A stretch of 64,000 nucleotides of DNA from Dictyostelium discoideum (lineage: Eukaryota), in the NCBI GenBank assembly GCA_000004695.1, contig CM000151.3, forward strand, positions 5,120,001 through 5,184,000, read 5' to 3'. Of the stretch, positions 1 through 59,844 are shown in pieces. Below the pieces are notes generated by a model, which was not told the origin of the DNA, searched no databases, and was given only the letters and a program-made list of their open reading frames with translations. Numbering within the stretch: the stretch's first letter is position 1; every line of letters starts with the position of its first letter. A program made the translations under genes and the position numbers.

Positions 1-1
1 A

Positions 2-331
2 CCATGGACAGTTTCAAAAGGTTATGATACATTTTGTCCAATTTCTGGATTTATACCAAAAGATAAAATTAAAGATTTAAATAATGTTGAATTATGGTGT
101 AGTGTCGATGGTCAAATCAAACAAAAAGGTAATACCAACCAAATGATTTTCGATGTTCCACATTTAATTCAATATATTAGTTCAATTATGACATTAGAAT
201 CTGGCGATTTAATTTTAACTGGTACACCTTCTGGTGTTGGTCCAGTAAAACCTGGACAAGTAATTAAATGTGGTATCACTGGTTTAGATACTGACATGCA
301 ATTCGATATCATTTTAAGAAAGAGAAATTAA
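2..331 (+). CDS. Fumarylacetoacetate hydrolase (FAH)-domain protein, C-terminal fragment. The 5' end lies outside the window.
   Basis: The open frame runs from base 2 to the stop at 329-331. The translation ...KGYDTFCPISGFIPK...DLILTGTPSGVGPVKPGQ... matches the conserved C-terminus of FAHD1-type oxaloacetate decarboxylase / FAH-family hydrolases. Confidence 0.7.
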   Translation, partial: PWTVSKGYDTFCPISGFIPKDKIKDLNNVELWCSVDGQIKQKGNTNQMIFDVPHLIQYISSIMTLESGDLILTGTPSGVGPVKPGQVIKCGITGLDTDMQFDIILRKRN

Positions 332-433
332 AATCCTTTTAAAATTATAAATTATAAATAAAAAAAAAAAAAATTAAAAAAGAAAAAATATTTTAAAAAA
401 AAAAATCAAGATTAATCAATTTATTATAATTTT

Positions 434-4359
<3,926 letters not shown>

Positions 4360-4589
4360 CTTTTTATATAATTATTAAGTATATTATTTTTATTTTAATT
4401 TGTGATTTTTTCCAAAATGAAAATAAAAAATAAGAATTCTTCCGAAAAAAAAAAAAAAAAATTAAAAAAATTAAAGTTGTATTCAAAAAAATAAAAAAAA
4501 AAAGAATCAATTAATTAATTCTGTATTTTTGTATCCTATAATTAATTTATTATAAAGAAAAATAAAAAAAATATATGTCGTATTAGTAA

Positions 4590-4632
<43 letters not shown>

Positions 4633-4807
4633 GATTTATAAAGAGGCACACGCAAATCTGTTATTTAATTAAATTTAGTGATCAAAAAAAATAATAATAA
4701 TAATAATAATAATAGTAATAAAAAAATAATAAAATAATAAAAAATATAAAATATAAAATATAAAGTGATAAATCTTTTAAAAGATTTTTTTTATTTTATT
4801 TTTGTGT

Positions 4808-4855
<48 letters not shown>

Positions 4856-6493
4856 AAAAAATAAAAACTGGCAAAAATCGATTTTTATATTTAATGTTAA
4901 TAAAAAAAAAAAATTAAATAAATAAAAATTATTGGTGCTGGGTTGTAATTTATTTGTTGTTTATTTGTTTTTTTTTTTTTTGTTTTATTGGTAATGATGA
5001 CAAAGGATTTTTTTTTTTTTTTTTTTTTTTTTAAATAAAAAAAAAAAAAAAAAATTATAATATTATTAATTATTAAATTGAATTATAATACCCCTCCAGA
5101 CATCATTAATATGAATAAAATTATAGATAAAAATGGTACAATTTTAAAATAAAAATTATTTTTATTTTTTTTTTTTAAAAAAAAAAGGAACACATTCATA
5201 TTTCTTGTGTAAAATAATTATGAGCAAGTGTGTGTTGGTGTTGAGTGTGAGTTTGTGATTTAAATTTCTTTTTTTTTTTTCTTTTTTTTATTTTATTTTA
5301 TTTTTATTTTTTTAGTTCATGACATATTTGTAGAACAAAATAGAGAACAAATAAAAATTAAAAAGTAAAAATAACAAAATAAAAACTAAAAATAAAAAAA
5401 ATAAAAAAAACTCTTTCTCTATTTAAATAAATGTGTTGTAATTTTATTGTGTTTGTGCGTGGGGGTGGTGTGTGTTGATGAAACCAAAAAATTGAAAAAT
5501 AATTGAAAATACATTGTATTTGATGAAATAATAACAATCATAAAGATTGAAGATAATGAATGTGCATATTACTCTTAAAAACAATGGGTAACACACACTC
5601 TTGTGTGGTTTTTTTTTTTATTTATTTATTTTTTTAATTTTTTTTTTATTTAATTTTGTTTATTTTTTTTTTTTTCCATAATCTATTTTTTCTTTTTTTT
5701 TTTTGGTTTTTTTTTTTATTTTTTTTTTGTGACTTACCTTTTTATAATCAATTTTTGCCCTGATGTAAATTCTTAGTTATTTGCGAAAAAGTTTCTTTTT
5801 TTGGAGAATGTGGTTTTTTTTTTTTTTTTTTAAATATTGCAATCCTAAATGAAATAGTGATTTATTTATTTATTTTTCCCTTTTTATTGCTAAAAAAAAT
5901 TATAAAATACAAAACAATTAAAATAATGTATTAAAAAAAAAAAAAAATAAAAAAATAAAAAAATAAATGAAAAAAAAAAAAATAAAAAATAAAAAAAAAC
6001 AAAAAAAGAAACTTTATAAATAAACAAATTTGGGTGATGGAATTTATATAAACAGTTTCATTTGACGTCAATTATTGTTATTTTTGTTTGAGTATCTATT
6101 GTTTGTTTGTTTTTTTGTTGTTGTTGTTATTGTTATTGTTGTGCCCTTTTTATAAATTTAAAAGAAGAAAAAAAAAATAAAAAAAAGTTCTTCTTTTGAT
6201 TATCTATAAATTTTTATAATTATTGTTATTATTATTATTTATTTGGTACCACACATAAACATAAGGTTTTTTTTTGTTTTTTTTTGTTTTTTTTTTTGTG
6301 TGTTTGTGTGTTTGTGTGTGTGTTATCTGTCCTTAAAATAAAATAAAAACACAAAAAAAAAAATGAAAATTAAAAAAAAAATTAAAAAAAAAAAAATAAA
6401 ATAAAATTTTCATTTTTTTTTCTTCATTTCCCAAACAAAATGCCACTTTAATTTGAAAAATAGTTAAAAAGGTGCCAAAATTTAAAAAATCGA

Positions 6494-7807
6494 ATGTTAA
6501 AAACCAATATAAATAAAATAATTGTGGGAGAATCTTCAAGATTTTTACGCGCACAAAATTCTTCTCTTACTAATGGTTTTCTAAAAATCCAACACACCAC
6601 CACCACTAAAAGAAGTTTCTGTAATTTTACTACCACCCCACAAATAAATAACAACACAAATAATAATAATAATAATAATAGTAATAATAACAGTTTAAAT
6701 GACAATTTTATTAATAACAATATAAAAAATAATGAATATTTAAAATTAAAAAGAGTTGTTGTAACTGGGATGGGTATTGTATCTCCATTAGGTGTAGGAA
6801 TAAAATATAATTGGGATAAATTAATAAATGGTGAGAGTGGAATTAAAAGATTTGAAGGATTTGAAGATAGTAGAATTGATTGCCCATCAAAAGTTGTAGC
6901 AAGAGTACCAAAAGGTGAAGGTATAGGTGAGTTTAATTCAAATACTATGATACCATCACAAGTGAAATTGGCAAGCTCTGATTTCATAAAATATGCAATC
7001 GTTGCAACTGATGAAGCTATTAAAGATTCAAAACTAGATAAATTCATTGAATCAAATGAAAAACTTCAAGAAAGAATTGGAGTATGTATTGGTTCTGGTA
7101 CAGGTTCAATGGAAGAAATTATCTCAGCAAATGAAAAGATTTCAAATAAATTAAATAACAATAACAATAACAGTGATAGTGGTAGTGGTAGTGGTAGTGG
7201 TGGTGGTGGTGGTAAAGTTTCAGCATATTTTATACCAAAAATTTTAATTAATGAAGCATCTGGTATAATTAGTATTTTACATAAAGCGAAAGGACCTAAT
7301 ATGTCAATTGTTAGTGCATGTGCAACTGGGTCTCATTGTATTGGCGAATCATTTAGAAAGATAAAATATGGTGAAGTGGACGCAATGATATGTGGTGGTA
7401 CTGAAGCGAGTATAAATTCAGTTTCAATGATTGGTTTCTCACGTATGAAAGCATTATCAACCAAATATAATAATCATATTAATCCATCATCAAGTAGTAG
7501 ACCATTCGATGAAGGTAGGGATGGATTTGTAATGGGTGAAGGCTCTGGAATATTAATATTGGAAGAGTATGAACATGCTTTAAAAAGAGGTGCAAATATT
7601 TATTGTGAAATCACTGGTTATGGTTCAACTGGCGATGCCCATCATATTTCAGCTCCAAATTCTGATGGAAACGGTCCGTTAAGGTCAATGAATTTAGCAT
7701 TACTAGAATCTGGTTTACCAAATTCCTCTCATATCGATTATATAAATGCTCATGCAACTTCAACGCCATTAGGTGATGGTATTGAATGTACTGCTGTTAA
7801 AAACTTT

Positions 7808-7858
<51 letters not shown>

Positions 7859-8119
7859 GAAATTATAATGAGCTCAAATAAAGGTTCAATTGGTCATTTG
7901 TTGGGTGCTGCTGGAAGTGTTGAATCAATATTTTCAATTTTATCATTATATAATAATATTATACCACCAACTTTAAATTTAGAAAATCCATCAAAAGATT
8001 GTCAGGGTATAAATTTAGTACAATTTAAATCTCAATCAAAACCAATTAGAAATGTTTTAAAAAATTCATTTGGATTTGGTGGAACAAATTGTTCTTTAAT
8101 TTTTTCAAAAATAAATTAA
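6494..8119 (+). CDS. Mitochondrial 3-oxoacyl-[acyl-carrier-protein] synthase (beta-ketoacyl-ACP synthase II / OXSM-like), single exon.
   Basis: The N-terminal presequence-like region is followed by the KAS motifs VVVTGMGIVSPLG, active-site Cys (SIVSACATGSHCIGE), HATSTPLGD and GHLLGAAG. The frame is uninterrupted from the ATG at 6494 to the stop at 8117-8119. Confidence 0.85.
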
Positions 8120-8178
8120 ATAAATTAAATTTTGGAAAAAGGAAAAAGGAAAAAAAAAACGAACAGGATATTTTTTTT

Positions 8179-8219
<41 letters not shown>

Positions 8220-8280
8220 AAAAAAACGAAATCAACGACCGAGTAATTTTTTTTTTTTTTTTTTAATTTTTTAATTTTTG

Positions 8281-8311
<31 letters not shown>

Positions 8312-8410
8312 ATTTCTCTTCTCTATCTCACTTTCCCAAAAAACTTAACCTTTTTAAATTATTTTATAAATATTTATTATAAAATAATAAAAAAAAGAAA
8401 AAAAAAAAGA

Positions 8411-10120
8411 ATGATTTCATCAATTCAATGGGTACCAAGAGGTGCATCAAATCCATTCCCAAAGAAATTTGACCCAAATGGTGAAGATATGGAAGAATTA
8501 AATGAAGAAGAAATTAAAGCAATGCAAGAAGAGGAAGAAGAAGATAGAATAATTGAAAAGAAATTTGAAAAGGGTGTACCAAGTGTTATGAATGACAAAG
8601 AAAAAGATTTTTATAAGAGATATAATTTTGATGATTATGATAGTGATGAAGGTGAACAAGATGAAGAGGAAAGAGATGAAAATGATCATAGTCGTAAAAC
8701 AGAAGAAGTTGGATTAAAATTCATTAATAGAGCAATGAAGGGTTTAATGTTTTATAAAGATACAGATTCAGATCCATACTTAACCAATAAGGAAGAAGAG
8801 GATATTGAAGATATAGAGGATGTTATTATTAGACCAACCGATTCAATATTGGTATCAGCAATTGTCACTGGTGAAGATGATTATTCGCATTTAGATATTA
8901 TGGTCTATGAAGAGGAATGCGATAATCTATACGTTCATCATGATATTATCCTCTCATCATATCCATTGGCATTGGCATGGATGGATCAAAACCCAATAAA
9001 TCCACAAGAGAAAGGTTCGTTCATGGCCGTTGGTACTTTCGAGCCATCCATCGAAATTTGGGATTTGGATGTTGTAGATAATTTAATTCCAACCGTTATA
9101 TTGGGTGGTAAAGAAGAGGATAGCGCCGATCCAATGAAAAAGCCATCCGCTAAAAAACGTGGTGGTAAACATAATAAATTCAAGGAAGGTAGTCATAGAG
9201 ATGGTGTTATGTCTCTCTCTTGGAATAGTCATCAACGTAATGTTTTAGCAAGTGGTAGCAGTGATAATACCGTCAAGGTTTGGGATATCACAACTCAACA
9301 ATGTCTCAACACCTTTACTCATCATAAGGATAAAGTATCTTGTTTACATTGGAATTCTCATGAGAAAACTGCACTTTTAATTGGTTCTCATGATAAACAT
9401 GTTAGTATTCTCGATGTTCGTGCACCAGATTCCGCATATAAATGGTCCGTAAAAGGTGAGGTTGAATCTTTATCTTGGAATCCACATAATCCAAAAGAGT
9501 TCATCGTTGGTACTGATGATGGTAGATTACTTTGTTATGATGCTACACTTGGTACTGCCGCTGCTCCAGTTTGGTCTGTTCAAGCCTCTCAAAAAGGTAG
9601 CGTCTCTTGTTTCTCCTATTGTCCTGGTCAAGTTGGTTTCTTTGCAACTGGTTCCTCTGATCATACTGTTAAACTTTGGAATTTAGAAACCTCCTCAAAT
9701 AAACCAACCCTCATTGAATCTAAAAATTTAGGTCAAGAAATTTTCACACTTTCATTCTTTGAAAATTCACCTTTCCTCTTAGCAGTTGGTTCTGAAACTC
9801 AAAGACCAAATGTAATTGACACTAAAAGATTTATCTCTGTACAAAATAGTTTTGGTATCGCTAGACCTGAAAATTCAAAAGAACCAGTTTTCATTACAAA
9901 TAATAAAAATAAAAATAATACTGAAGAAGAAGAAGAAGAAATTGAAGAAGATACTGATAGTGATCATAATGATGATGAAATTGAAGAAGAACAAGAAGAA
10001 GAAGAACAAGAAAAAGAAATTACACCTCCACCAAAACAAACTAAAAAATTAAATAATACAAAAAATAATAAAAAAGATGTTAAAAATAGAAAGAAAGTTG
10101 GTGATTCAGATGAAGAATAA
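8411..10120 (+). CDS. pwp1: Periodic tryptophan protein 1 homologue (PWP1), a WD40-repeat ribosome-biogenesis factor. Single exon.
   Basis: Strong similarity to PWP1 across YVHHDIILSSYPLALAWMD, IEIWDLDVVDNLIPTVILGG and DGVMSLSWNSHQRNVLASGSSDNTVKVWDI. There is an acidic N-terminus and a K/E-rich C-terminus. Confidence 0.85.
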   Translation: MISSIQWVPRGASNPFPKKFDPNGEDMEELNEEEIKAMQEEEEEDRIIEKKFEKGVPSVMNDKEKDFYKRYNFDDYDSDEGEQDEEERDENDHSRKTEEVGLKFINRAMKGLMFYKDTDSDPYLTNKEEEDIEDIEDVIIRPTDSILVSAIVTGEDDYSHLDIMVYEEECDNLYVHHDIILSSYPLALAWMDQNPINPQEKGSFMAVGTFEPSIEIWDLDVVDNLIPTVILGGKEEDSADPMKKPSAKKRGGKHNKFKEGSHRDGVMSLSWNSHQRNVLASGSSDNTVKVWDITTQQCLNTFTHHKDKVSCLHWNSHEKTALLIGSHDKHVSILDVRAPDSAYKWSVKGEVESLSWNPHNPKEFIVGTDDGRLLCYDATLGTAAAPVWSVQASQKGSVSCFSYCPGQVGFFATGSSDHTVKLWNLETSSNKPTLIESKNLGQEIFTLSFFENSPFLLAVGSETQRPNVIDTKRFISVQNSFGIARPENSKEPVFITNNKNKNNTEEEEEEIEEDTDSDHNDDEIEEEQEEEEQEKEITPPPKQTKKLNNTKNNKKDVKNRKKVGDSDEE

Positions 10121-10441
10121 AATAAAATTAAATAATAAAATTAAATAAAAAAAAAAAAAGATTTTAAAAATATAATTAATTTTTTTTTTTTTTTCCAAGG
10201 ATAGGATCTTCAAAAGATACAAAGGGATTTCTTTGTATCTTTTCTAGATGTGTTTTAAAATGTATTTTATTTAAAGTTAAAATTTATATTATTTTTTTTT
10301 TCATATTATTAATTTTTTTTTTTTTTTAAACTTCTTATATATTGGAACTGGGAGGAGGTAATGGATTTATTGGTCACATCTTTGATTTTTAGTAGAAAGT
10401 TTTTTGATGGTGGCTATTATCGAGTTTTCCTATTCTTTATT

Positions 10442-10496
<55 letters not shown>

Positions 10497-10842
10497 AAGC
10501 AAATAAATAATTAAAAATAAATTATCTAAACACTATTAAATTATTCAATTTTTACCTTTTTCCTAAATTAAAATTTGAAAAAATACCATGGAACATTTAT
10601 TATCCTATATAAATAATAACCTTAAGTTTGTTTCGATTGTTTTATTGGTGTCAAAATTAATGATTTGTTTTTTTTGGTGTGTGATTTGAAAATGATTGGG
10701 TTTTTTTTTTTTAAAATTTAATTCACCCACAAAATTACTTGTAAAAGTAAAATTAAAATTAAACCTTTTTTTTTTATTCCCTGCGTCTTGGTAAATTTGG
10801 ATTTGTCATTGGGATATTACTGATTTTTTACACATAAAAAAA

Positions 10843-10880
<38 letters not shown>

Positions 10881-10986
10881 TTTATTTTTTTTTTTTTTTC
10901 ATTTTTTTTTTGATCGTTCGAATCAACTCTTGTTGTTTGTTTGAAAATCAAATCAATTTCCTTTAAAGATAGTTTTTTAAAGAAAA

Positions 10987-11545
10987 ATGGCACCACCAAC
11001 AAAAGAATTAACAAATAAAGAGATTACAGCAATCAAGGGTATTTCAGTAAGTTTTTAATTACTATTTTTTTTTTTTTTTTTATAAATATATCCTCATTTC
11101 TAATTTTTTCACTATCTACTATTTTATTATTATTTTTTTGTTTTTTCTTAAAATAGAAATTATTTGATGATAAGAAATACAGTAAAGGTTTAAAAGAGTG
11201 TAATGCAATTTTAAAGAATCATCCAGAAAATCCAGATGCATCATGTTTTAAGAGTTTGATTTTATACAATTTAGAACAACAATATGAAGCACGTGAAAAT
11301 GCAATCAAAACCACCAAAACCTTACCAACCAACTCAATGGCATGGCATACATTAGGTTACATTTATAAATTGGATAAGAACTATCTCGATGCAACTACAG
11401 CCTTTAAAAATGCTTCAAAATTCAATAAAGAAAGTTCACAAATCTTAAAAGAATTAGCACCACTTCAATTATATTCAAGAGATTTAGAAGGTTTAAAGGT
11501 AAGAATTTTTTGTTTTTTTTTTTTTTTTATTTTTAATTTTCTACT

Positions 11546-11634
<89 letters not shown>

Positions 11635-14105
11635 TTAATAATAATTAATAATTTTTTATTTTTTTAATTTTTTAAGGAAACGTATGCAACATTATTAAAA
11701 TTACAACCAACTCATAAACCACATTGGACAGGATTAGTGACTACATATCAATTAATGGGACAAACTAAATCAGCATTATCAGTATTTGAAAGATATTTAG
11801 ATACACTCGAAGAGAAAGATTTAGTTGGTGTTAAAAAGACTGAATCACTTCTCTACAGAGTTATGCTTAACTTTGAATTGGAAGAATATGATCAAGCTCT
11901 TGATATTTTAGTAAAGAATGAAAAAACAATAATAGATAAACTTTGGGCAATGTCAAAACATGGTGATATTCTCTTAAAGAAGGGTGAACTCTCTGCAGCT
12001 GAAGCTAAATTTAAAGATTTAATTAAATTAAATCAAGATGATTTAAATGTTCACAAAAAACTTTGGGAATCAAAAAATATTAGATCTTTAGGTAATTTAT
12101 TATTTATATATATATAATAATTTTAATTATATTTATATAATTAACACATTTTAATTTATATAAATACTATATATATAGATAATTTAAGTGATGAAGAAAT
12201 TTCAACATTAGATTCATTATATAAAGAATTAAGTTCATTATATCCAAAGAGTTTATTAATTCAAAAGATACCATTATTATTTTTAAAGGATAAACAACAA
12301 TTTAGAGAACATGCAGTATTATACACAAAGAATTTCCTTAGCAAAGGTATTCCATCATTATTCAACAATCTCAAATGTTTATACAATAATAAAGAGAAAG
12401 TTGAAATTTTATCTCAATTATTTTTAGATCAATTAAATTCACTCAAAGAGAAACAACAATTATTAGGTTCCGATGAAAAAGAATCACCATCAACTGTCTT
12501 ATGGTGTCTTTATTATTTAGCTCAACATTTCGATAGAATTAATGATTATTCAACTTCTTTATCTTATATTAATCAAGCAATTGAACATACTCCAACTTGT
12601 TTAGATTTATATGTTGTTAAAGCTAAATTATATAAAGTAAGTAATCAATTAATTAATAATCATTATAAACACAGTGTGGTGATATATTAATATAATTTTT
12701 TATATTTATTTATTTATTTATTTTTAGCATCAAGGTGATTTACAAAAAGCTTATGAAGAATATGATAGAGCTCGTAATTTAGATTTAGCAGATAGATATT
12801 TAAATACTAAATGTGCATTATATGCCCTTAGAAATAATGATCCAGATACAGCTGAAGCAATCTTTTCATTGATTAAGGATGAAACTCAAACACTTTTATT
12901 CAACATTCAAGAATTCCAATGTATTTGGTATGAAAGAGAATTGGGTAAAACTTATTTAAGAGCTGGTGATAATGCTAGAGCAATTAAATTATTCAATTTT
13001 GTTGATAAAGTATGTACATTAATTAATCAATCAATTTTTTTTTTTTTTTTTTTTTTGTTTTTATTTTTATTTTTATACTAATTTTTTTTTTTTTTTTTTT
13101 TTATTATTTTAGAATCATCTTGAATACCTTGAAGATCAAATGGATTTCCATAATCATATTAATAAGAAATTAACAATGAGATCATATATTGAATTTTTAA
13201 GATGGGAAGATCAAGTTTATCAAAATAAACCATACATTGCCACTGGAAAAGCACATGTTAAAGCATACCTTAATCATCAAAATAAACCAGAAGTTATGGC
13301 ACCATTGAAAAAAGTACCAGCAATTAAGAAACCAGCACCAAAACCATCTCAATTGGAACCAAAGAAAGATCCAAACACTGGTCTCACCATTCCAGAGGAT
13401 GACGATTTGAATGGTAAAAAGTTCTTGGTTAAACAAGTTAATCTCATGGATTCAGCTCAACTCATTTTAGATAATCTCTTGAAAAATACAAATGATATTG
13501 AAATTTATTCATTAGCTTGCCAAGTTAATACACATCAAAGTAAGTTTAAATTTTTAAAATATTTTTTTTAAATATTTTTATTTTTTTACATATATATATA
13601 AACTAACCTTTATTATTTTTTAACAATAAAAAAAAAAAATATAGAGAAATATTTATTAGTATTAAAATCATTGGTTAAAATTAAATCAATTAATGAAAAT
13701 AGTCCATGTTATTATGAAAATTTAGTTGATTTAATGATTAAAGTATCAGAAGATAAAGAGGTATCAGCAATTGTTAAAGCAGCAGTTGAAAAACAAGCAG
13801 GTTTTTCATCAGATGTTGAATCAATTTTAGCAAACAACCAAACTTATCTCGAAAAACTTGGTGACAATGTTACCGCTCAACATCGTTTCGTTGTTGGTAA
13901 AATCATTGCCAAACTTTCACCATCATCACTTGATAAAGCATCAGAATTGATTTTGAATGTTCAAGGTGAAACAAGTTGGAAACAATGCGCTGACAACCTT
14001 CAATCTCTTTCTCTTGTATCTTCCGAACTCACTTCTAAATACAGAGAAAAATTACACGAACATTTCCCAATTGCTAACTATTTCCAACCAAAAGTTGAAA
14101 ATTAA
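10987..14105 (+). CDS. naa15: N-alpha-acetyltransferase 15/16 (NatA auxiliary subunit, TPR protein). Seven exons: 10987-11046, 11157-11498, 11677-12091, 12179-12636, 12728-13009, 13113-13539, 13645-14105.
   Basis: The exons were joined by eye using GTAAGT/GTAAGA/GTATGT donors and AT-rich (t)nAG acceptors. All phases are consistent. The translation aligns with NAA15 along its length (TPR repeats; ...PSTVLWCLYYLAQHFDRINDYSTSLSYINQAIEHTPTCLDLYVVKAKLYK...; C-terminal KYLLVLKSL...). The ATG is at 10987 and the stop at 14103-14105. Confidence 0.8.
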
Positions 14106-14434
14106 TTCAAAATAAAAAAAATAATAATAATGAATAATAAATAATAATCAATTTAAAAATAAACTAATCAATAAATAAATTTAACAAAAAAAAAAAAAAA
14201 ACTTTTCTAAACACTTTTTTTTAATTATTTCTTTTATTTGTACATTATTATTATTTTTTTGTTTTGTAAATTTGGTTAAAGGTAATTTATTTTTTAATCA
14301 AATAATTGAGTTAAAGAATCCAAATGAGATTTTAATTTTTAAGTATTAATATTAAAAGATAATTTTTTTTTTTTTTTTTTTTTTAATTTTTAAAAGATGG
14401 AATAGTCAAGTATAGTTGGAGTTATTTGAACTAC

Positions 14435-17400
14435 TTATGTTTTTTTTGTTGCGGTTTGTTTTGAGGTGTTAGTTGGATTGGGAGTAGATGTTGAAGTTGA
14501 TTTTGAACTAATTCTCTGAATGATACTATTAATACTACTTGATGATAATTGTAAATGAGTGAATAAATTCTTTGTAAATTCTTTATCTATCCAATTCTTT
14601 AATTGTACTGTTAATAAAGAATCAATACCATAGTCTTTTAATCTTGTATCTAAATTTAATTTTGATGGATGAATTGATAATAATTCAGAGATTGTAGAAA
14701 TGACTTTTGCTTGAGTAGAACCAGAATCACCCAATGAATCATCAGAACTAGCAGATGAAGTTTTATAATTTGTTAGGTGGTGATCCATTTTTCTCTTCAT
14801 TTGAGGTGCAGAAGATAAAAGATTATCAATATTGAAACTTGAAAGCATAAAGTTTGATAAATGGGAATTAGATGGTTGGAAAACTGAATCAAGACAACCT
14901 AAAATCTTTGATAAAGAAACCAATAAAATACCTTGACCCTCTAAGAAACTTGCGACTGATTTATCAGTGGCGGCAACACCACCAGCATCCAAACCACCCC
15001 AATTAATTGAAGTTGAAGCAAGACCAATACTCTTTCTATAGTTTGATAATGAATCCAATACTAAATTAGCACTACTATATGCACATTGTTTTGAACCACC
15101 AATGATGGCACCAATTGATGAAAAGAGAATAAAGTTTTCTAATTTCCAATCTTTTTCAATTGAAAGATTATGTAAATTAATTGCACCGACTGCTTTTGGA
15201 TTATGAGTATTATCAATTACGGTTTGAGTGATATTTTCTGGTAAAATGTATTCATAAACTGTTGCAAAATGTAATACTGATTTAATTGGTGAAACATTTT
15301 TACAACTTGAATAAACTTGATCAATTGCAGTACGAGTTGAATTTAAATCTGCAATATTTACAGATTTATAATGGAATCTAAATCTATCACCATATTTATG
15401 TTTAGTTTGATTAATTAAATTTTCAAGTTCCCATTTTAATGATGATCTTGATAAAATTATGAAATCTGTTACTTGTTGTTGTGATTTATTTGAATTTAAA
15501 ACAGAACCAGAAATAATCCATTTTAAAATATGAACAGCAATACCAGTTTGACCAGTGATTAAAATTGTATTATTTAAAGTATCACAAGTATGTTCCAATT
15601 TTTTAACTTTATTCAATTGAATTGGATTTTCTTTCTCTTGTAAAGCTGGTTTAAGAATATCTTGTTCAAAGTTTTCAAAATCAACTACAATTTTACCAAT
15701 ATGAACACGTTCATTAATATATTCAATCGCAGTTTTAACTTGAATTGCTGGGAAAACTTTAACTGGAATATTTTCAAGACTACCATCAGAAATTGCATCA
15801 AATACTTCTGTGAGGATATCTCTAATAATTTTTGAATTATATTTCGTAGCTCTATCTAAATCTATTGTATTGTAGCCAACATGATACTTAAAGTTTGAAA
15901 AATCTAATGAATCATTTTCAACCAATTGAGTGACTGATAAATCCATAATTCTACCAACTTGGGAAAGTGAACGGAAATTTGAAGATAAATAATCACCAGA
16001 GAGTGTATTTAAAATTAAATCTACACCTCCTTGTGCTGATTGTTGTTTAATTTCATCGCAATATTCAGTATCTCTACTATTGTAAATTGCAGTTATTAAA
16101 TCACCATATTTCTCTTGTAAATAATCGATTTTTTCTTTGGAACCCACTGTAGCATAAATTGAAGCATCATTACTAATTTCAGAGTTGCCATGTTTTTTCA
16201 ATTGATTTCTCTTCCATTTTAAAAGATTTAAACTTGCTAAACCAACACCACCAGTTGCAGAATGAACTAGGATTGATTCTTTATCGGCAATAAAAGCACC
16301 AATATGGAAAATTGAATAATAACTTGTTGCATAAACTACACAAACGGCAGCAGCTTCATTGAATGAAATATTTTCAGGTTTTAATACAATTTTATTTTGA
16401 TGAGTTGTAACATGTGAACTTAAAGAATGGCTTGCAAAACCAACAACTTGATCACCAACTTTGAAACGAGTAACGCCACTTGGTGCAACACGTGTAATAT
16501 AACCAGCACATTCTAAACCGAATGGTGGAGAATAAATATCACCTTTTGAAAAGACTTCTTGTGGTAATAAACCTCTATAGAAAAGACTATCTTTATAATT
16601 GATACCAGTTGACATAACTTTAATTTCGACGCAACCATGCAGTAATTTCTCTTTGCTTTGGAATGAAAAATCTAAATTACTATTTGAATACAAGAATAAA
16701 TTATTTGTATTCTTTTCATAATTATTTGATGGTGATAACAATTTTGGCTCTTTGAAAATCTTTTGAACAAAAATTTTATTATTTCTAACAATAGTTTCTC
16801 TATCACCAATTGTAGATAGATCAACTAAACGTAAGAATAATGTAAGATTATCAATTGAATCTTTATCTACATCAATTGAAAAGATATTCAATGACCGAAA
16901 TTCTAAAAAGTATCTAAAAGTACCAATTAATGATGATCCTAAATAATTTTTACCACCATTTTGAGAATCGTAAGTTAATAAAGCAAATCTAGTTGAAAGA
17001 TTATTTCTTAAAAGTATTTGATTAACTAATGTATATTGCATTGTAACTTGTTTATAATTTTCAATTGTTAATTCTTCAAGTGAAACTAAAAAGAAAATAA
17101 TATCATTTTTACCAACACCTGATTCAATTGTCTTTGTTAATAATTCACTATCATCAGCTTCAATAATTGTTGCATTTTGACAGAAAAATTCAGTAATATC
17201 AAAATATTCTTGAATATATGAAGTTGGATTTTCTTTTTGTTCTTTTGAAACTATGAATATACAATTACTATATGATGAATTTAATGATTTTGGATCAGAT
17301 GAGAAAGTTAATGACATTGATTCAATATCTCTCTTTTCAGCTTGAACTATTAAAATTGATGGAGGAGGTGGTTGTTGTTGTTCTTCATCATCTTTAGTAT

Positions 17401-20400
17401 TAAGATTTGTTTCAATTTTAGTGAAACCACAATATATAATTAATGATTTAATTTCTTGTTCACTTTTAATTTCTAATGATTGTTTGAAATCATTTGCAAA
17501 TAAAAGATTGAATGATAATACACCCTTTGGTGGTTCCATTAAAATTAATTGACCTTTTGGTAATAATAATTTATAAAGTTTTGATAAAACTTCATTTGAA
17601 TCAATTGAGTTTGTTGAAACTAATAATAAAGAAGTTATAATTAAATCATAATTTGAATTTAAATAACCATTACTCTCTAAATCATCTTGTAAATCAAAAC
17701 TACGATATTTAATATTTAATACATTTGAAATCGATTTAGTTTCTTCTGTAATTGAATCAATATTTTTGGTATTTGATGGAATTGTATATTCAATTTCAAT
17801 ATTATTATTATTTGATAAATTAATTAGTAATTGATTTAATTGTAATAATAATAATTTTGAAAGTTGATAATTTTGATAGATACTTGATAAATCAATTATT
17901 TTAATTAATTTCTTTTCGCCAATTTCAATTGAATTAATTAATCTATCAAATGAATTTACAATTGTTTTTGAAATTAATTGATTTTGATTTGAAATGAATT
18001 GAGAATTTGAGAAATTAAATGGTTCATTATTTAATTGATTAATTGTTTCTTCATTATTAGTATCATCATCAGCATCGTCAGAAGAGGCAGCATTATTCTT
18101 TGAAGAACAATTGTTTGAATTATTTCTTGGTGTATCATTTGGTGAACTTGGGTTACTTGGTGAAAAATGTTCACTTTCACCACCTTTTAATAATGAAACA
18201 ATACGTTTGATTGATTTTTCAACTAATTTAATTTCATTTTTAAATGATGATTTTACAATAATTGCTTGTTTTAAACTAGTTATATCAATTGATTGATCTA
18301 ATGAGTCTATTGGGTTTAAAATTGATTGAATCTTTTCTAATAGTTTTGCATTTTTTGAACCAATATCTAAAGTATCTACTGTTGAAGTTTTATAATCGAA
18401 TTCTATAAATTCAGATTTTATTGATTGGTTTAATAATCTAATTAAATAATAATTAAATAATTTATCATTTAATAATTTTTCAAAATTAATTTTAGATTCT
18501 GATGATTTCTCTTCAATTAATTGATTTTCAATTAAAGTTAATGGTGAATCTTTTGATTGCCAATGGTGTGAATAAACATTTTGTGAAGGATATTTAATTG
18601 ATTGTTTCTTTAAACGTATTAATGATGTACATTTAACATTTTTAATTGAAATTAATAATGTACCATCTTCTAATATGATATTAAGAGAACCATGAGTAGA
18701 ATTACCTTCAATTTTATCGAATTTAGCAAAGGCATAAATGAATTGAGGTCTTGTTGAAGGTACATTTGAAGAATAGAATTTCATATCTTGTAAACGATCG
18801 AAAACAATCTCTTGTGGACCTTCACTGAGTACTAATAAACCATGGAATGCACAATCAATAATTGAAGGATTTAAGAAATCTTTGTCAAACTCTGAACAAG
18901 GTGACATTGAAAGTTTAAAGAATGAACATCCATCACCAATTGAACATGATTCAACTCTTTGGAAAGTTGGACCATATGGTAAACTTAATAACAATAGCTT
19001 ATTGTAAACTTCAGACTTTGTAAGGGTGGTAAATGAACATTGACTTTTAAGTTTTTCAATATCCAATTTATTATTCTTTGGATTATGTTTGAATAATCCA
19101 ATACGACCATTTGAAGTTTTAGTCCATTTAGTTGAGTTTCTATTATCCTTTATAAAGAATTCAACTTTAAATTCACCCTTGGTAGTTGGTGTAATTGAAG
19201 TTTGTAAATGATGTTGAACACCATCTTTCAAAAAGAATGGATTTGAAAATTCTAAATTGAAAATGGTAATATCTTGACCATTGAATTGACGAAGAATATT
19301 ATCAATATAACCAGAACCCGGGAAAAGATATTTACCTTTAATTTTATGACCTTTTAGATATTGATGAGCAGATTTATCAATATCAATAAATAATTCCATT
19401 AAAGTATTACCTGCAAATTGATCATGACCTAATAAATTATTTGATGGACCACGTTTTACCATTTTACTTTGGTTTGGTTCATCCCAATATTCCTCAAAAT
19501 CCCATTGGTATCTTGGTAATTTATTTGTTGATTCTTTAAATGATGATATATCGCCACCTCCGGATGAAGAAGAAGTTGGTAATAATTGTTGACCACTTGC
19601 AAAATCAATTTCAACACCATTACAATATAGAGTTGAAATTGCTAATTTAAATTGTGTTAATTCTTCTTTCTTTTTATGTAATGGTGATACTATAATTGGT
19701 TTTGAAGTTATTGTTGAATTTGATGGTTTACATTTTGGAATGTAAAAACCTAAAGTTGGATGAGGACCAATCTCTAAAAAGATTGCATTCTTGTATGATT
19801 CATTTTCTTCAATGAAATTGAAAATGTTTGAAATGGCTTTGGTGAATTCAACAGGCATACGTAAATTATCATAAATGTATTGAACATTGTAGAAACCTTT
19901 ATGAGATAATTGTGAACCAGTAATTGTTGAAAAGAATGGTACACATGGTACATTTGATTCTGGTAAATCTGATAAATCTTTGAATATCTTTTCTTTAATC
20001 ATTTCTTGTTTTGATGAGTGGAAAGAACATGGTGTACCTAAGAAAGCACAAAAAACACCTTCAGCTGATAGTGTCGATTTAGCACCTAGCAAATCTTGTT
20101 CAGAACCAGTAATAACAATTGAATTTGGATCATTATAACAAGCTATTTCAATTTCTGGATATAATAAAGCACATTTTTCAAGATAAGCATCAGCACCGAT
20201 ACCAATTGATAATAATCTACCAGTTCCCATTGTTAAATTTTGAGCTAAGCCTCTATAGTAAACGATTTTAACAGCAGTTTCTAAACTGATGACATCAGAG
20301 AATAAAGCGGATGGAATTTCACCAAAACTATGACCAACTACAATTGATGGTGAAATACCAAATGATTTATAAAGTGCGACTAAACCAACTTGAATTAAGA

Positions 20401-21938
20401 AAATACTTGGTTGTGCTAAAATTGGATGATGAATTTCTGGTGAATCTTCACTTTCTAATGAAAGTAACTTTTGGAGTATAGAATATCCAAAATAATTAGC
20501 AAGTAATTTATCACAATGATCAATGGCATCTTTAAATACTGATTCAGTTTCATATAATGCTTTACCCATATCTCTCCATTGTGGGCCTTGACCAGTGAAA
20601 ACATAAATGACTGGAGTTGATGAAGCTGGTGCTGAAATTGTTGAAGTCAATGATGAAGTTGATGTAGTTTCATTTCTTTTATTTAAAAAGTCATCCCAAT
20701 CGGAAGCTGTTATAACTTTTCTCTTTATTAAATTTGATTTTGAAATTGTTTGATGTTTTACAAAATCTTTAAATAATATTGTATCTTTATAAATAGATTG
20801 GTTTGAAATTAATTTCTCTATATATTTATCTAATGAAATATTACAATTTGCTGAAAATGGTATTAAATATTCTTTTTTATCATCATTTGAAGAAGAGGAT
20901 GTAGAGTTATTATTTGTTGTTTTCAATAATTCATCATAATTAATTGGTGCTTCACTTAGAATCATATGACAATTTGAACCAGATAGACCAAAACAATTAA
21001 TACCCATATTAATTAATTTATTGATTGGGAACTGGATTTCATCAGTGACTACACGAATATTCCAATCTTCGAATTTGATTAATGGATTTGGTTTTTCAAA
21101 ATGAATATTTGGAACTAATGAACGATTTTTTAAAGAGAGTGCAACTTTGATTAATGATGCAATACCGGCAGCACTTTCAAGATGACCAATGTTGCTTTTA
21201 ACTGAACCAATGTACAATGGAGCATCGGGTGTATGATTATCTTTGAATATTCTTGATATTGCTTCAATTTCAATCGGATCACCAACTGGTGTACCAGTAC
21301 CATGAGCTTCTATATAATAGATATCTGATGGGTTTACACCAGATTTCTTTAAAGCAATTTCAATGTTTTCACCTTGAGCCTTCATTGATGGTTGAATGAT
21401 ATTGGTCTTTGCATTGTATCCATCAACATTTGAACTACCACCTTTGATAACACAATAAATACGGTCACCATCTTTAATTGCATCTGAATATTTCTTTAGG
21501 ATACAAACACCACCACCTTCACTACGAATGTAACCATCAGCACCAGCATCGAATGATCTACATTGACCTTTATGTCCTAACATATTTAATCCAGAGAATG
21601 TCATTGAAAAACATGGATCGAAAATACCATTGACACCACCAACAATTGCCATCTTACTATCACCATTTGCAATGGCTTGGCAACCAAGATAAACTGCGTT
21701 CAATGATGATGAACATGCTGTATCAAGTGTCATTGATGGGCCACGTAAATCAAAACTAAAACTTAAACGATTTGATATAAATGATCCTGCAGTACCAGGA
21801 GTTATATAAGGATTCACATATGATATATCTCTGAATTGACATCTTTGATAATCAGTATTCATCATACCAATAAATACTGCTGTATCTGATCCACGAAATG
21901 TTGATGGTTTAATATTTGCATCTTCAAATGCTTTTTTT

Positions 21939-21978
<40 letters not shown>

Positions 21979-22355
21979 CTTTTTAATTTATAATATTTAA
22001 TTATTATTATTATTATTATTTATAATTATTATATACCTTCCCAAAGTGTTGTCATTAAAAGACGTTGTTGTGGATCAATAATTGGTGCTTCTTTTGGTGA
22101 AATACCAAAAAATAATGGATCAAAATTTTTCCATTCTTCATCTTTTAAGACACCACCATATTCGTTATTTATATATTTTTGTTCATAAAAAGATCTTGAC
22201 CACTTTTCTGTAGGAATCTTTGAAATACCATCCATTTTGTTTGATAATTGATTCCAAAATTGATACGGATTATTTCCACCACCTGGAAAACGGAAACCCA
22301 TACCAATAATGGCAATATCATCATTATTTTCATCTTTAATATTATTAAATGTCAT
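14435..22355 (-). CDS. Type I iterative highly-reducing polyketide synthase of about 2.6k aa. Exon 1 is 22355..22037 and exon 2 is 21930..14435, separated by a 106-bp intron at 21931..22036.
   Basis: Domains seen in the translation:
- KS: [30 protein letters not shown]
- AT: VVGHSFGE
- DH: HxxxGxxxxP in [20 protein letters not shown]
- a degenerate methyltransferase-like spacer
- ER: [14 protein letters not shown]
- KR: [16 protein letters not shown]
- ACP: [17 protein letters not shown]
There is no C-terminal chalcone-synthase (Steely) domain. The donor GAAG|GTATAT and acceptor aaaaag|CA keep phase 1. Confidence 0.85.
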
Positions 22356-22610
22356 TTTTAAATAGTTATAAACTATTATTATTATCTAAGGATTTTTTTT
22401 TAAAAAATTTGACTGGTTTAAAATTAAATTTAATATAGAAAAAAAAAAAAAAAAGGAATTTGATTTTTTTTATAAACTAAAAACAAAAGTTGGAAAAAAT
22501 AAATTTACTAATTTAAATATTGAATGAAATTTAGTATAATTTTTATTTTTTTATTTAATTTATAATATTTTGAAAAAAAAAAAATTTTGATGGAGATTTG
22601 TGTTATTAGT

Positions 22611-22660
<50 letters not shown>

Positions 22661-45036: not shown

Positions 45037-46886
<1,850 letters not shown>

Positions 46887-54591: not shown

Positions 54592-54738
54592 TAATTTTTT
54601 TTTTTTTTTTTTTTACCAATAAATAAATAAATAAATAAATATAAATAAATAAATATAAATAAATAAATTTTCTTTTTTTTAAAAAAAAATCAATTATTTT
54701 TTGCTATTTATTATTATTTTAACAGTAAATATTAAAAC

Positions 54739-54866
<128 letters not shown>

Positions 54867-55280
54867 TTTTGGAAATCGACATATCTATTTTTATTTTATT
54901 ATTTTTTTTATTTATTTTAATTTTTTGATTTTTTTAATTTTTTTTAATTTTTTTTTCTCATTTAACATATGTTCCAGTACATGATCATTATTTTTATTAT
55001 TTTTATTTTTTTTTTTTTCCATTTTTTTTTTTATTTTTTCAAAATTTTTTTTTTTTTTATTTTTTTTTTATTTTTTTAATTTTTTTTTTTTTACTTTAAT
55101 TTTTTTCAACATAAATTCATACACCTCCTTTTTTAATTTTTAACCACACTTCATATAATAGAGAAAAAAAAAAAAAAAAAAATAATATTAATAAACTTAT
55201 CATAAACTCACTCACTGACATTCCTTCATCCTATGTAATTTGAAATTTATCCCTAATTAAAGAAATAGAATTATAATAGA

Positions 55281-59844
<4,564 letters not shown>

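Follow-up and report, generated by a model that had tools for sequence, protein, structure and literature searches.

Identity and structure of the gene

The window described here is a stretch of 64,000 nucleotides of chromosome 2 of Dictyostelium discoideum AX4 (GCA_000004695.1, contig CM000151.3, positions 5,120,001 to 5,184,000 of the forward strand), and the element under study is a large type I polyketide synthase (PKS) gene located on its minus strand, from position 22355 to position 14435. The base composition of the window is very AT-rich (GC mostly 0.13–0.33). A first-pass annotation, made from the sequence alone, had placed a two-exon gene of about 2.6k amino acids at these coordinates without giving a strand, and both ends coincide exactly with a start and a stop codon (ATG at 22355, TAA at 14437-14435). 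Two long minus-strand open reading frames (ORFs; 22355..22029 and 21865..14435) are joined through a single intron to form a coding sequence (CDS) of 7,815 nt, which is translated into 2,604 amino acids with one terminal TAA and zero internal stops. The gene is made up of the following parts:

22037..22355 (minus): exon 1, 319 nt, codons 1-106 together with base 1 of codon 107; the protein obtained after splicing is identical to XP_643790.1 / Q869X2
21931..22036 (minus): sole intron, 106 nt, GT..AG, phase 1; contains a long poly-T tract
14435..21930 (minus): exon 2, 7,496 nt, the TAA stop (14437-14435) included

The splice model is validated by a database protein (XP_643790.1 / EAL69819.1 / UniProt Q869X2) to which its product is identical along the whole length. 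This entry is DDB_G0275077, "Probable polyketide synthase 17", so that the flagged feature is pks17, an already annotated gene. The protein is 96% identical over its full length (2509/2605) to Pks16 (DDB_G0275069), whose gene has its intron at the same position (132 nt instead of 106 nt), and it aligns end to end with the structure of Pks16 obtained by cryo-electron microscopy (PDB 9NJU).

Domain architecture and active sites

A Pfam search of the 2,604 residues of Pks17 gives the domain order KS-AT-DH-(inactive C-MT)-ER-KR-ACP, that is, ketosynthase, acyltransferase, dehydratase, C-methyltransferase, enoyl reductase, ketoreductase and acyl carrier protein. The catalytic residues were located by alignment with orthologues and paralogues. 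The domains are distributed as follows:

21095..22322 (minus): KS, residues 12-385, spanning the intron; PF00109 E=9e-75, PF02801 E=4e-38
Residues 387-500: KS-AT linker (Pfam)
19613..20608 (minus): AT, residues 548-879; PF00698 E=6e-49
18605..19381 (minus): DH, residues 957-1215; PF21089 and PF14765
17150..18559 (minus): MT0, the inactive C-methyltransferase, about residues 1231-1700
15683..16633 (minus): ER, residues 1873-2189; PF08240 and PF13602
14993..15568 (minus): KR, residues 2228-2419; PF08659 E=2e-26
14486..14725 (minus): ACP, residues 2509-2588; PF23297 E=5e-27

The catalytic residues of KS, AT, DH, ER, KR and ACP are all in place. The KS keeps the triad C179, H316 and H356 (within DTACSSS, EAHGTGT and NIGHLE), and the AT has S641 in GHSFG, the carboxylate-binding R666 and the xSFH motif at 741-744 (H744). 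In the reductive part of the enzyme, the DH carries H968 in HxxxGxxxxP and D1132 in DxxxH, the NADPH motif HSATGGVG of the ER is intact (residues 1996-2003), and the KR retains K2352, S2378, Y2391 and N2395 together with a Rossmann motif, TGQTGIA, that is typical of the family. The phosphopantetheine attachment site of the ACP is S2544 in GIDSL, and this domain is almost invariant across the series of orthologues.

Some variation was observed just after GHSFGE, in the active-site helix of the AT, where Pks17 reads IPSALFSD and Pks16 reads VSSALFSG. At residue 646 proline is ancestral (it is also found in D. citrinum and D. firmibasis) and the serine of Pks16 is derived, while the change G652D is derived in Pks17.

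This order, including the ER and KR, is the one proposed in the first-pass annotation, which had also assigned the protein to the Dictyostelium pks family without a Steely-type chalcone synthase (CHS) fusion and without a release domain of the thioesterase (TE) or reductase kind. The Pfam search bears out each of these points: no match to a TE or alpha/beta-hydrolase was found at E<=1 in Pks17, where merely 16 residues follow the ACP domain, and neither the PF07993 reductase nor the chalcone synthase families PF00195 and PF02797 were detected.

Relationship to fatty acid synthases

In neighbor-joining (NJ) trees, Pks16 and Pks17 are placed in a slowly evolving clade of fatty acid synthases (FASs), apart from the other pks paralogues; this clade has short branches and its topology follows the species tree, and the Steely-type proteins form a separate clade. 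The subclade formed by the proteins of Dictyostelium, Polysphondylium violaceum and Tieghemostelium lacteum, which are devoid of a terminal reductase, obtains a bootstrap of 193-200/200. The orthologues of T. lacteum, Heterostelium album and Cavenderia fasciculata carry the source name "putative fatty acid synthase".

The notion that these two proteins are FASs comes from the literature. In PNAS 2025 (PMC12625978), Zucko et al. (2007) are credited with having proposed Pks16 and Pks17 as FASs on the basis of phylogeny. Passages of PMC12828403 that cite Narita et al. (2014) describe Pks16 as the primary FAS, of vegetative cells, and Pks17 as its late-culmination paralogue. The proteome of vegetative cells contains 29 peptides unique to Pks16 and 0 unique to Pks17 (PMC12828403), and pks16 could not be inactivated and was reported as essential (PMC12625978).

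The methyltransferase-like region

Between DH and ER lies a region, MT0, composed of a helical lid, a disordered Ser/Asn loop and a class-I methyltransferase (MT) core. In the Pfam search it gives a weak match to Anamorsin_N, a family with the methyltransferase fold, at residues 1517-1624 (30.3 bits, with the cut-off at 27.1). The first-pass annotation had suggested that the region has lost the glycine-rich motif that binds S-adenosylmethionine (SAM), and the alignment agrees: motif I reads IIDLSSIYQ at residues 1451-1459, where the methylating paralogues have ILE[FIAM]GGGT[AGC] (in its longer form, RILE[FIAM]G-GGT[AGC]SLS). The catalytic histidine of the His-Glu dyad is gone as well (NVLH has become SLLLV), while the glutamate in MEP is kept, as is the LLxPxGQLxxxEP motif of residues 1561-1576, which is the peptide quoted in that annotation. 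No member of the Pks16/17 orthologue clade has motif I or the C-MT histidine, and this shared degeneration across the whole clade implies that the loss of the MT is old.

An AlphaFold2 model of residues 1231-1700 (predicted local distance difference test, pLDDT, 73.6; predicted TM-score, pTM, 0.72) was compared with known structures by means of Foldseek. Its best match is Pks16 (9NJU, E=1e-48), and over both lid and core it matches the C-MTs CurJ 5THY, AprA (MT2) 6D6Y, DszA 6CCA, PsoF, citrinin CMeT 5MPT and LovB 7CPX, with E=1e-13 to 1e-10 and a target-normalised TM of about 0.6; the modifying region of human FAS is matched over the core only. According to this model, MT0 appears to have retained the lid and the class-I methyltransferase fold.

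The possibility of an active MT in the orthologue of P. violaceum was considered and rejected, given that the additional methyltransferase Pfam matches of this protein stem from an N-terminal Methyltransf_10 domain. The gene model (P0015; locus L006, 10001-20526) has 2,991 amino acids with Methyltransf_10 at its start, and a separate Methyltransf_10 gene lies 5' of the FAS gene in D. purpureum (L003, 3116-4592) and in T. lacteum (L005, 3947-5060). What this long model represents is thus probably a fusion with the upstream neighbour and not a synthase with an active MT of its own.

Origin by inverted duplication

The pks16 gene lies just outside the window. Its locus in another D. discoideum assembly (L001; pks16 at 10001-17944) overlaps positions 1..8499 of the window at 99.6% identity, which places the stop codon of pks16 1,531 bp to the left of window position 1, on the plus strand, opposite to pks17. 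The two genes are therefore convergent and approximately 16 kb apart. The sequences that they share are the following:

14215..22650 (minus): duplicated core shared with pks16, inverted, 8.5 kb, 95.9% nucleotide identity (L001 9670-18167 against window 22650-14215)
13123..13913 (gene on the plus strand): 3' exons of the NatA-auxiliary-subunit gene, part of the duplicated unit

Weaker duplicated pieces extend as far as position 13123, inside the NatA gene, which is intact beside pks17 (11256-14105). The copy next to pks16 has decayed to a relic of the 3' part (L001 18269-18806, 50-85% amino acid identity). A 48-nt homopolymer (A on the gene strand) is found at 22613-22660, some 260-300 bp 5' of the ATG of pks17, at the edge of the block of high identity.

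The ancestral arrangement can be read from D. firmibasis, which has a single FAS copy. The 10 kb upstream of this gene are collinear with the upstream region of pks16 (162 tblastx hits, against 0 hits for the upstream region of pks17), whereas its downstream neighbours, NatA, WD40 and a ketoacyl-ACP synthase (KAS), all convergent with the FAS gene, are those found downstream of pks17 (80-96% amino acid identity). Since the flanks of the D. firmibasis gene are split between the two copies, the pair appears to have arisen by an inverted duplication that comprised the FAS gene, about 0.3 kb of 5' flank and about 1.3 kb of 3' flank, with inversion of the intervening stretch of approximately 14 kb. 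The ancestral upstream flank was retained by pks16, and pks17 kept the ancestral downstream neighbours and acquired a new upstream context; the loss of the ancestral upstream region would fit the reported difference in expression.

Divergence and maintenance of the two copies

The two CDSs, with roughly 170 nucleotide differences, are separated by a dS of 0.040 and a dN of 0.017 (dN/dS 0.42). The ratio is low in KS (0.27), AT (0.24), DH (0.14) and KR (0.27), higher in MT0 (0.62) and ER (0.61), and about 1.1 in the ACP tail, a value that comes from 5 substitutions. Identity is 96% in the CDS and falls to approximately 72-76%, with many indels, in the flanks and the intron. There are 96 amino acid differences between the proteins, concentrated in the N-terminus of the KS, in MT0 and in the ER, and their polarisation with D. 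citrinum and D. firmibasis as outgroups indicates that most of them are derived in Pks17. The latter is thus the faster-evolving and less constrained copy, yet one that is maintained under purifying selection and is no pseudogene.

A dense patch of Pks17-specific changes occupies residues 132-158 of the KS (window about 21856-21776, minus), where TVTG of TVTGSAGSFV is replaced by ITPG, which includes the change T151P. The patch is a fixed feature of Pks17 in several isolates and in D. cf. discoideum, and no other PKS has it. An ectopic conversion tract donated by another pks gene was considered as its source and rejected, as the variant is confined to Pks17 copies.

A relic peptide past the stop codon

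The end of the protein has also changed. In D. citrinum and D. firmibasis it has an ancestral ending of about 20 residues (...TTPTTLDTSMFIPSFKN) that can still be read past the TAA of the D. discoideum gene, as the following feature:

14383..14434 (minus): non-coding relic of the ancestral C-terminal peptide, just 3' of the pks17 stop; VVQITPTILDYSIF, then a frameshift, then IPSFKN*

The D. citrinum protein ends in ...VAQTTPTTLDTSMFIPSFKN, and its tail matches positions 14482-14393 of the window (tblastn, E=0.002). The terminal peptide (...TSMFIPSFKN) is conserved in D. citrinum, D. firmibasis and P. violaceum. The TAA stop is common to pks16 and pks17, from which it follows that a shared nonsense mutation truncated both D. 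discoideum proteins; past it, the relic remains in frame after pks16 (L001 17945-18007) and is frameshifted after pks17. Read-through of the stop codon into the relic was rejected for pks17 on account of this frameshift.

Product release and the reductase of related proteins

Of the 40 PKSs of D. discoideum, 21 have a C-terminal CHS or thioester reductase (TR), and Pks16 and Pks17 are not among these (PMC12828403). Lacking TE, TR and CHS, Pks17 must let the chain leave the ACP by other means. No genes for thioesterases, acyltransferases, P450s or methyltransferases are present in the whole 64-kb window, and neither release or tailoring genes nor a conserved hydrolase gene were found beside the FAS orthologues of D. 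firmibasis, D. purpureum, T. lacteum, P. violaceum and C. fasciculata. Neither PMC12828403 nor PMC12625978 makes a statement on the offloading of Pks16 or Pks17, and a literature search on release by the Dictyostelium FAS returned nothing relevant. We are thus faced with an essential eukaryotic type I FAS that has no TE, and the release of its product is not stated in the literature found.

A different ending is observed in H. album, Acytostelium subglobosum, C. fasciculata and one EukProt protein (P0017, P0018, P0019 and P0020; L004 8001-17113), in which a C-terminal TR of approximately 420 amino acids follows the ACP. It belongs to PF07993 (E=6e-54 in H. album and 3e-47 in C. fasciculata), with the motifs TGxxGxxG and YxxSK, and in C. 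fasciculata ACP and TR are encoded in one uninterrupted ORF of 2,367 codons. A FAS that ends in a reductase would be expected to release an aldehyde or an alcohol, not an acid. This TR shows homology to those at the C-terminus of over 30 further dictyostelid PKSs (30-36% identity, E down to 1e-60). A tblastn search for a TR remnant 3' of pks17 or pks16 found none, the best match (E=0.12) falling inside the KS.

The union of the reductase-bearing and reductase-less subclades has an NJ bootstrap of 26-106/200, a poor support caused by fast-evolving lineage-specific paralogues that attach nearby. The reductase-bearing proteins appear to be the nearest relatives of Pks17 in their species, although strict orthology is not claimed. 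A loss of the TR in the lineage of D. discoideum, D. purpureum, P. violaceum and T. lacteum is tentatively favoured over a gain elsewhere, because the domain is homologous to the TRs of so many other dictyostelid PKSs.

Other features of the window

Besides pks17, the ORFs of the window encode a WRKY protein, a FabF-type KAS II, a WD40 protein, the NatA auxiliary subunit, a protein kinase, an HSP20, a Rid-family protein, an F-box/PH/RhoGAP protein, a CAF1 nuclease, a legume-type lectin, a MOZ/SAS acetyltransferase and several low-complexity proteins. The KAS II gene (6494-8119, plus) is located between pks16 and pks17, 6 kb from the latter, and encodes a stand-alone protein of 541 amino acids (NCBIfam PRK07314, 474 bits) whose N-terminus is extended by approximately 85 residues; it is presumably the condensing enzyme of the mitochondrial type II FAS. 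Three genes of fatty acid synthesis thus lie within about 30 kb, and KAS and FAS are linked in D. firmibasis too (L002 24813-26351).

At 55281-58381 (plus) there is an extreme GC skew, down to -0.70, that originates in long coding tracts of poly-Asn, poly-Gln and poly-Thr; the second ORF of this region ends in a motif similar to the Cys-box of ubiquitin proteases (GLINTSNTCFMNVILQSL). The repeats at 991-1182, 46108-46256 and 54728-54867 are of low complexity, as is this region.

Function proposed for Pks17

The foregoing sections lead to a proposal that we hold as very probable, namely that pks17 is a recent inverted duplicate of pks16, the gene of an iterative type I synthase, similar to the animal FAS, that serves as the amoeba's cytosolic FAS. 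Within this pair, Pks17 is best seen as a stage-specific accessory FAS. For the pair, a saturated long-chain fatty acid is reported as the product, and for pks17 an expression in late culmination, both second-hand (PMC12828403, PMC12625978). From the intact active sites and the structure of Pks16, a mechanism can be proposed in which the Pks17 homodimer would load acetyl and malonyl units onto the ACP (S2544) by means of the AT (S641), and the KS (C179/H316/H356) would condense them. The KR, DH and ER would then fully reduce every beta-carbon, iteratively, to give a saturated long-chain acyl-ACP. MT0 would be a structural insert in the KR subdomain that has the C-methyltransferase fold and cannot bind SAM, so no methyl branches would be introduced. 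The acyl chain would be removed from the ACP by something else, most likely a discrete trans-acting thioesterase or acyltransferase encoded elsewhere; the main alternative, back-transfer to CoA by the AT, seems less likely.

Several points weigh against this proposal. The release step is entirely inferred, and it is there that the analogy with the animal FAS fails, Pks17 having no TE. The function as a FAS and the late-culmination expression rest on the citation of Narita et al. (2014) in passages of two 2025 papers, and Pks17 itself is not known to have a biochemically determined product. Moreover, 65 derived substitutions are found in Pks17 against 17 in Pks16 (binomial p=9e-8), all 17 differences in the KS are derived in Pks17, and six of its changes fall at positions where the rest of the clade does not vary (T151P, I214F, T285I, N1888S, D1952N and E2132D). 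As a consequence of these derived changes, the product of Pks17 or its chain length may differ from that of Pks16.

This asymmetry, together with the dense KS patch that is fixed and kept among isolates, can be taken further, to the view that Pks17 is a true highly reducing PKS of secondary metabolism, whose product at culmination would be an unusual lipid or a polyketide signal of development, released or tailored by unlinked enzymes. The new upstream regulatory context of the gene and an expression reported as late-developmental and not vegetative (PMC12828403) speak in the same direction. A secondary metabolite is nevertheless improbable in an enzyme that is 96% identical to the FAS Pks16, with the catalytic residues of a full reductive loop intact and a dead MT, and zero tailoring genes in 64 kb; the literature treats Pks17 as a FAS (PMC12828403, PMC12625978), and a dS of only 0.04 leaves little time for the product to have changed. 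The same relaxation of constraint relative to Pks16 would also be expected if pks17 were a redundant duplicate, a by-product of the inversion and duplication that has no function of its own and is drifting towards loss. The dN/dS of about 0.6 in MT0 and ER and of about 1.1 in the ACP tail (5 substitutions), the absence of Pks17-unique peptides from the vegetative proteome (PMC12828403) and a post-stop relic that is more decayed in pks17 than in pks16 agree with such a drift. It is very improbable all the same, for an ORF of 2,604 codons has stayed intact in an AT-rich genome where stops arise easily, with its catalytic residues all intact and a dN/dS of 0.14-0.27 in KS, AT, DH and KR. Several wild isolates and D. 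cf. discoideum have kept a distinct Pks17-type copy, and late-culmination expression of pks17 is reported (PMC12828403).

The preferred reading, that of an accessory FAS, can be extended to a tentative scenario that we consider rather unlikely as a whole. The dictyostelid FAS would originally have been terminated by a TR, which the lineage of D. discoideum lost before a nonsense mutation removed the conserved C-terminal peptide, and the essential FAS pair would now rely on a trans-acting release enzyme. Pks17, with its new promoter context and its cluster of fixed KS substitutions, would be neo-functionalising towards another chain length or lipid for culmination and would not be a plain back-up.

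The gene itself was already known: its annotation dates from the 2005 genome, the survey of its family from 2007 and the structure of Pks16 from 2025. The first-pass annotation had framed it as an orphan secondary-metabolite PKS with no adjacent tailoring genes; the anatomy was right, and there are indeed no such genes in the 64 kb, but the identity as the known FAS paralogue pks17 was missed, and the wording on adjacent genes has to be tempered in view of the inverted twin pks16 about 16 kb away and the FabF-type KAS 6 kb away. A complete reductive loop, an inactive MT and an absence of tailoring genes are all to be expected of a FAS of primary metabolism, and the features flagged are the normal signature of the Pks16/17 pair. 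Product release, which the annotation had considered unexplained, is the one oddity that this identity does not account for. What the locus offers is a clean and datable inverted duplication that split the ancestral flanks and was followed by asymmetric divergence.

Comparison with known systems

The Steely proteins StlA and StlB (Pks1/Pks37) belong, like Pks17, to the dictyostelid type I PKS family and have an N-terminal FAS-like module (37-38% identity). Steely proteins possess a type III (chalcone synthase) end and an intact MT motif I, ILEIGAGTG, and Pks17 has neither.

The animal FASN (PDB 2VZ8, 8VF7) shares with Pks17 the order KS-AT-DH-(pseudo-MT)-ER-KR-ACP, an inactive insert with the MT fold, the full reductive loop and the nature of a homodimeric megasynthase, and its PDB sequences match Pks17 with E=1e-156 to 8e-150. 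It differs in its C-terminal TE, which releases palmitate and is not present in Pks17, and MT0, with its N-terminal lid, is closer to the true C-MTs of PKSs (CurJ, LovB) than to the pseudo-MT of FASN. The joint between KS-AT and DH has been described as rigid in Pks16 and flexible in porcine FAS (PMC12828403).

Mycocerosic acid synthase (MAS), which is the third-best PDB sequence match of Pks17 (E=4e-160), and the fungal highly reducing PKSs LovB and LovF are likewise type I synthases that work iteratively, are fully or highly reducing and lack a thioesterase of their own. Their products are removed by separate proteins, PapA5 in the case of MAS, LovG in that of LovB and LovD in that of LovF, whereas no such partner is known for Pks17 or linked to its gene in the 64-kb window. 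In addition, MAS has no MT domain and uses methylmalonyl-CoA, and in LovB the C-MT is active and a condensation domain forms the C-terminus.

Pks16 is the closest system, with the same domain order, intron position, dead MT, premature stop before the relic peptide and lack of a release domain; the genes differ in their orientation and in the ancestral 5' flank, kept in pks16 only. Finally, the proteins of C. fasciculata, H. album and A. subglobosum resemble Pks17 in their architecture from KS to ACP, in the dead MT motif and in a nearly identical ACP, and differ from it in the C-terminal PF07993 TR. It is this reductase of the early-branching relatives that provides a comparative handle on the question of release.

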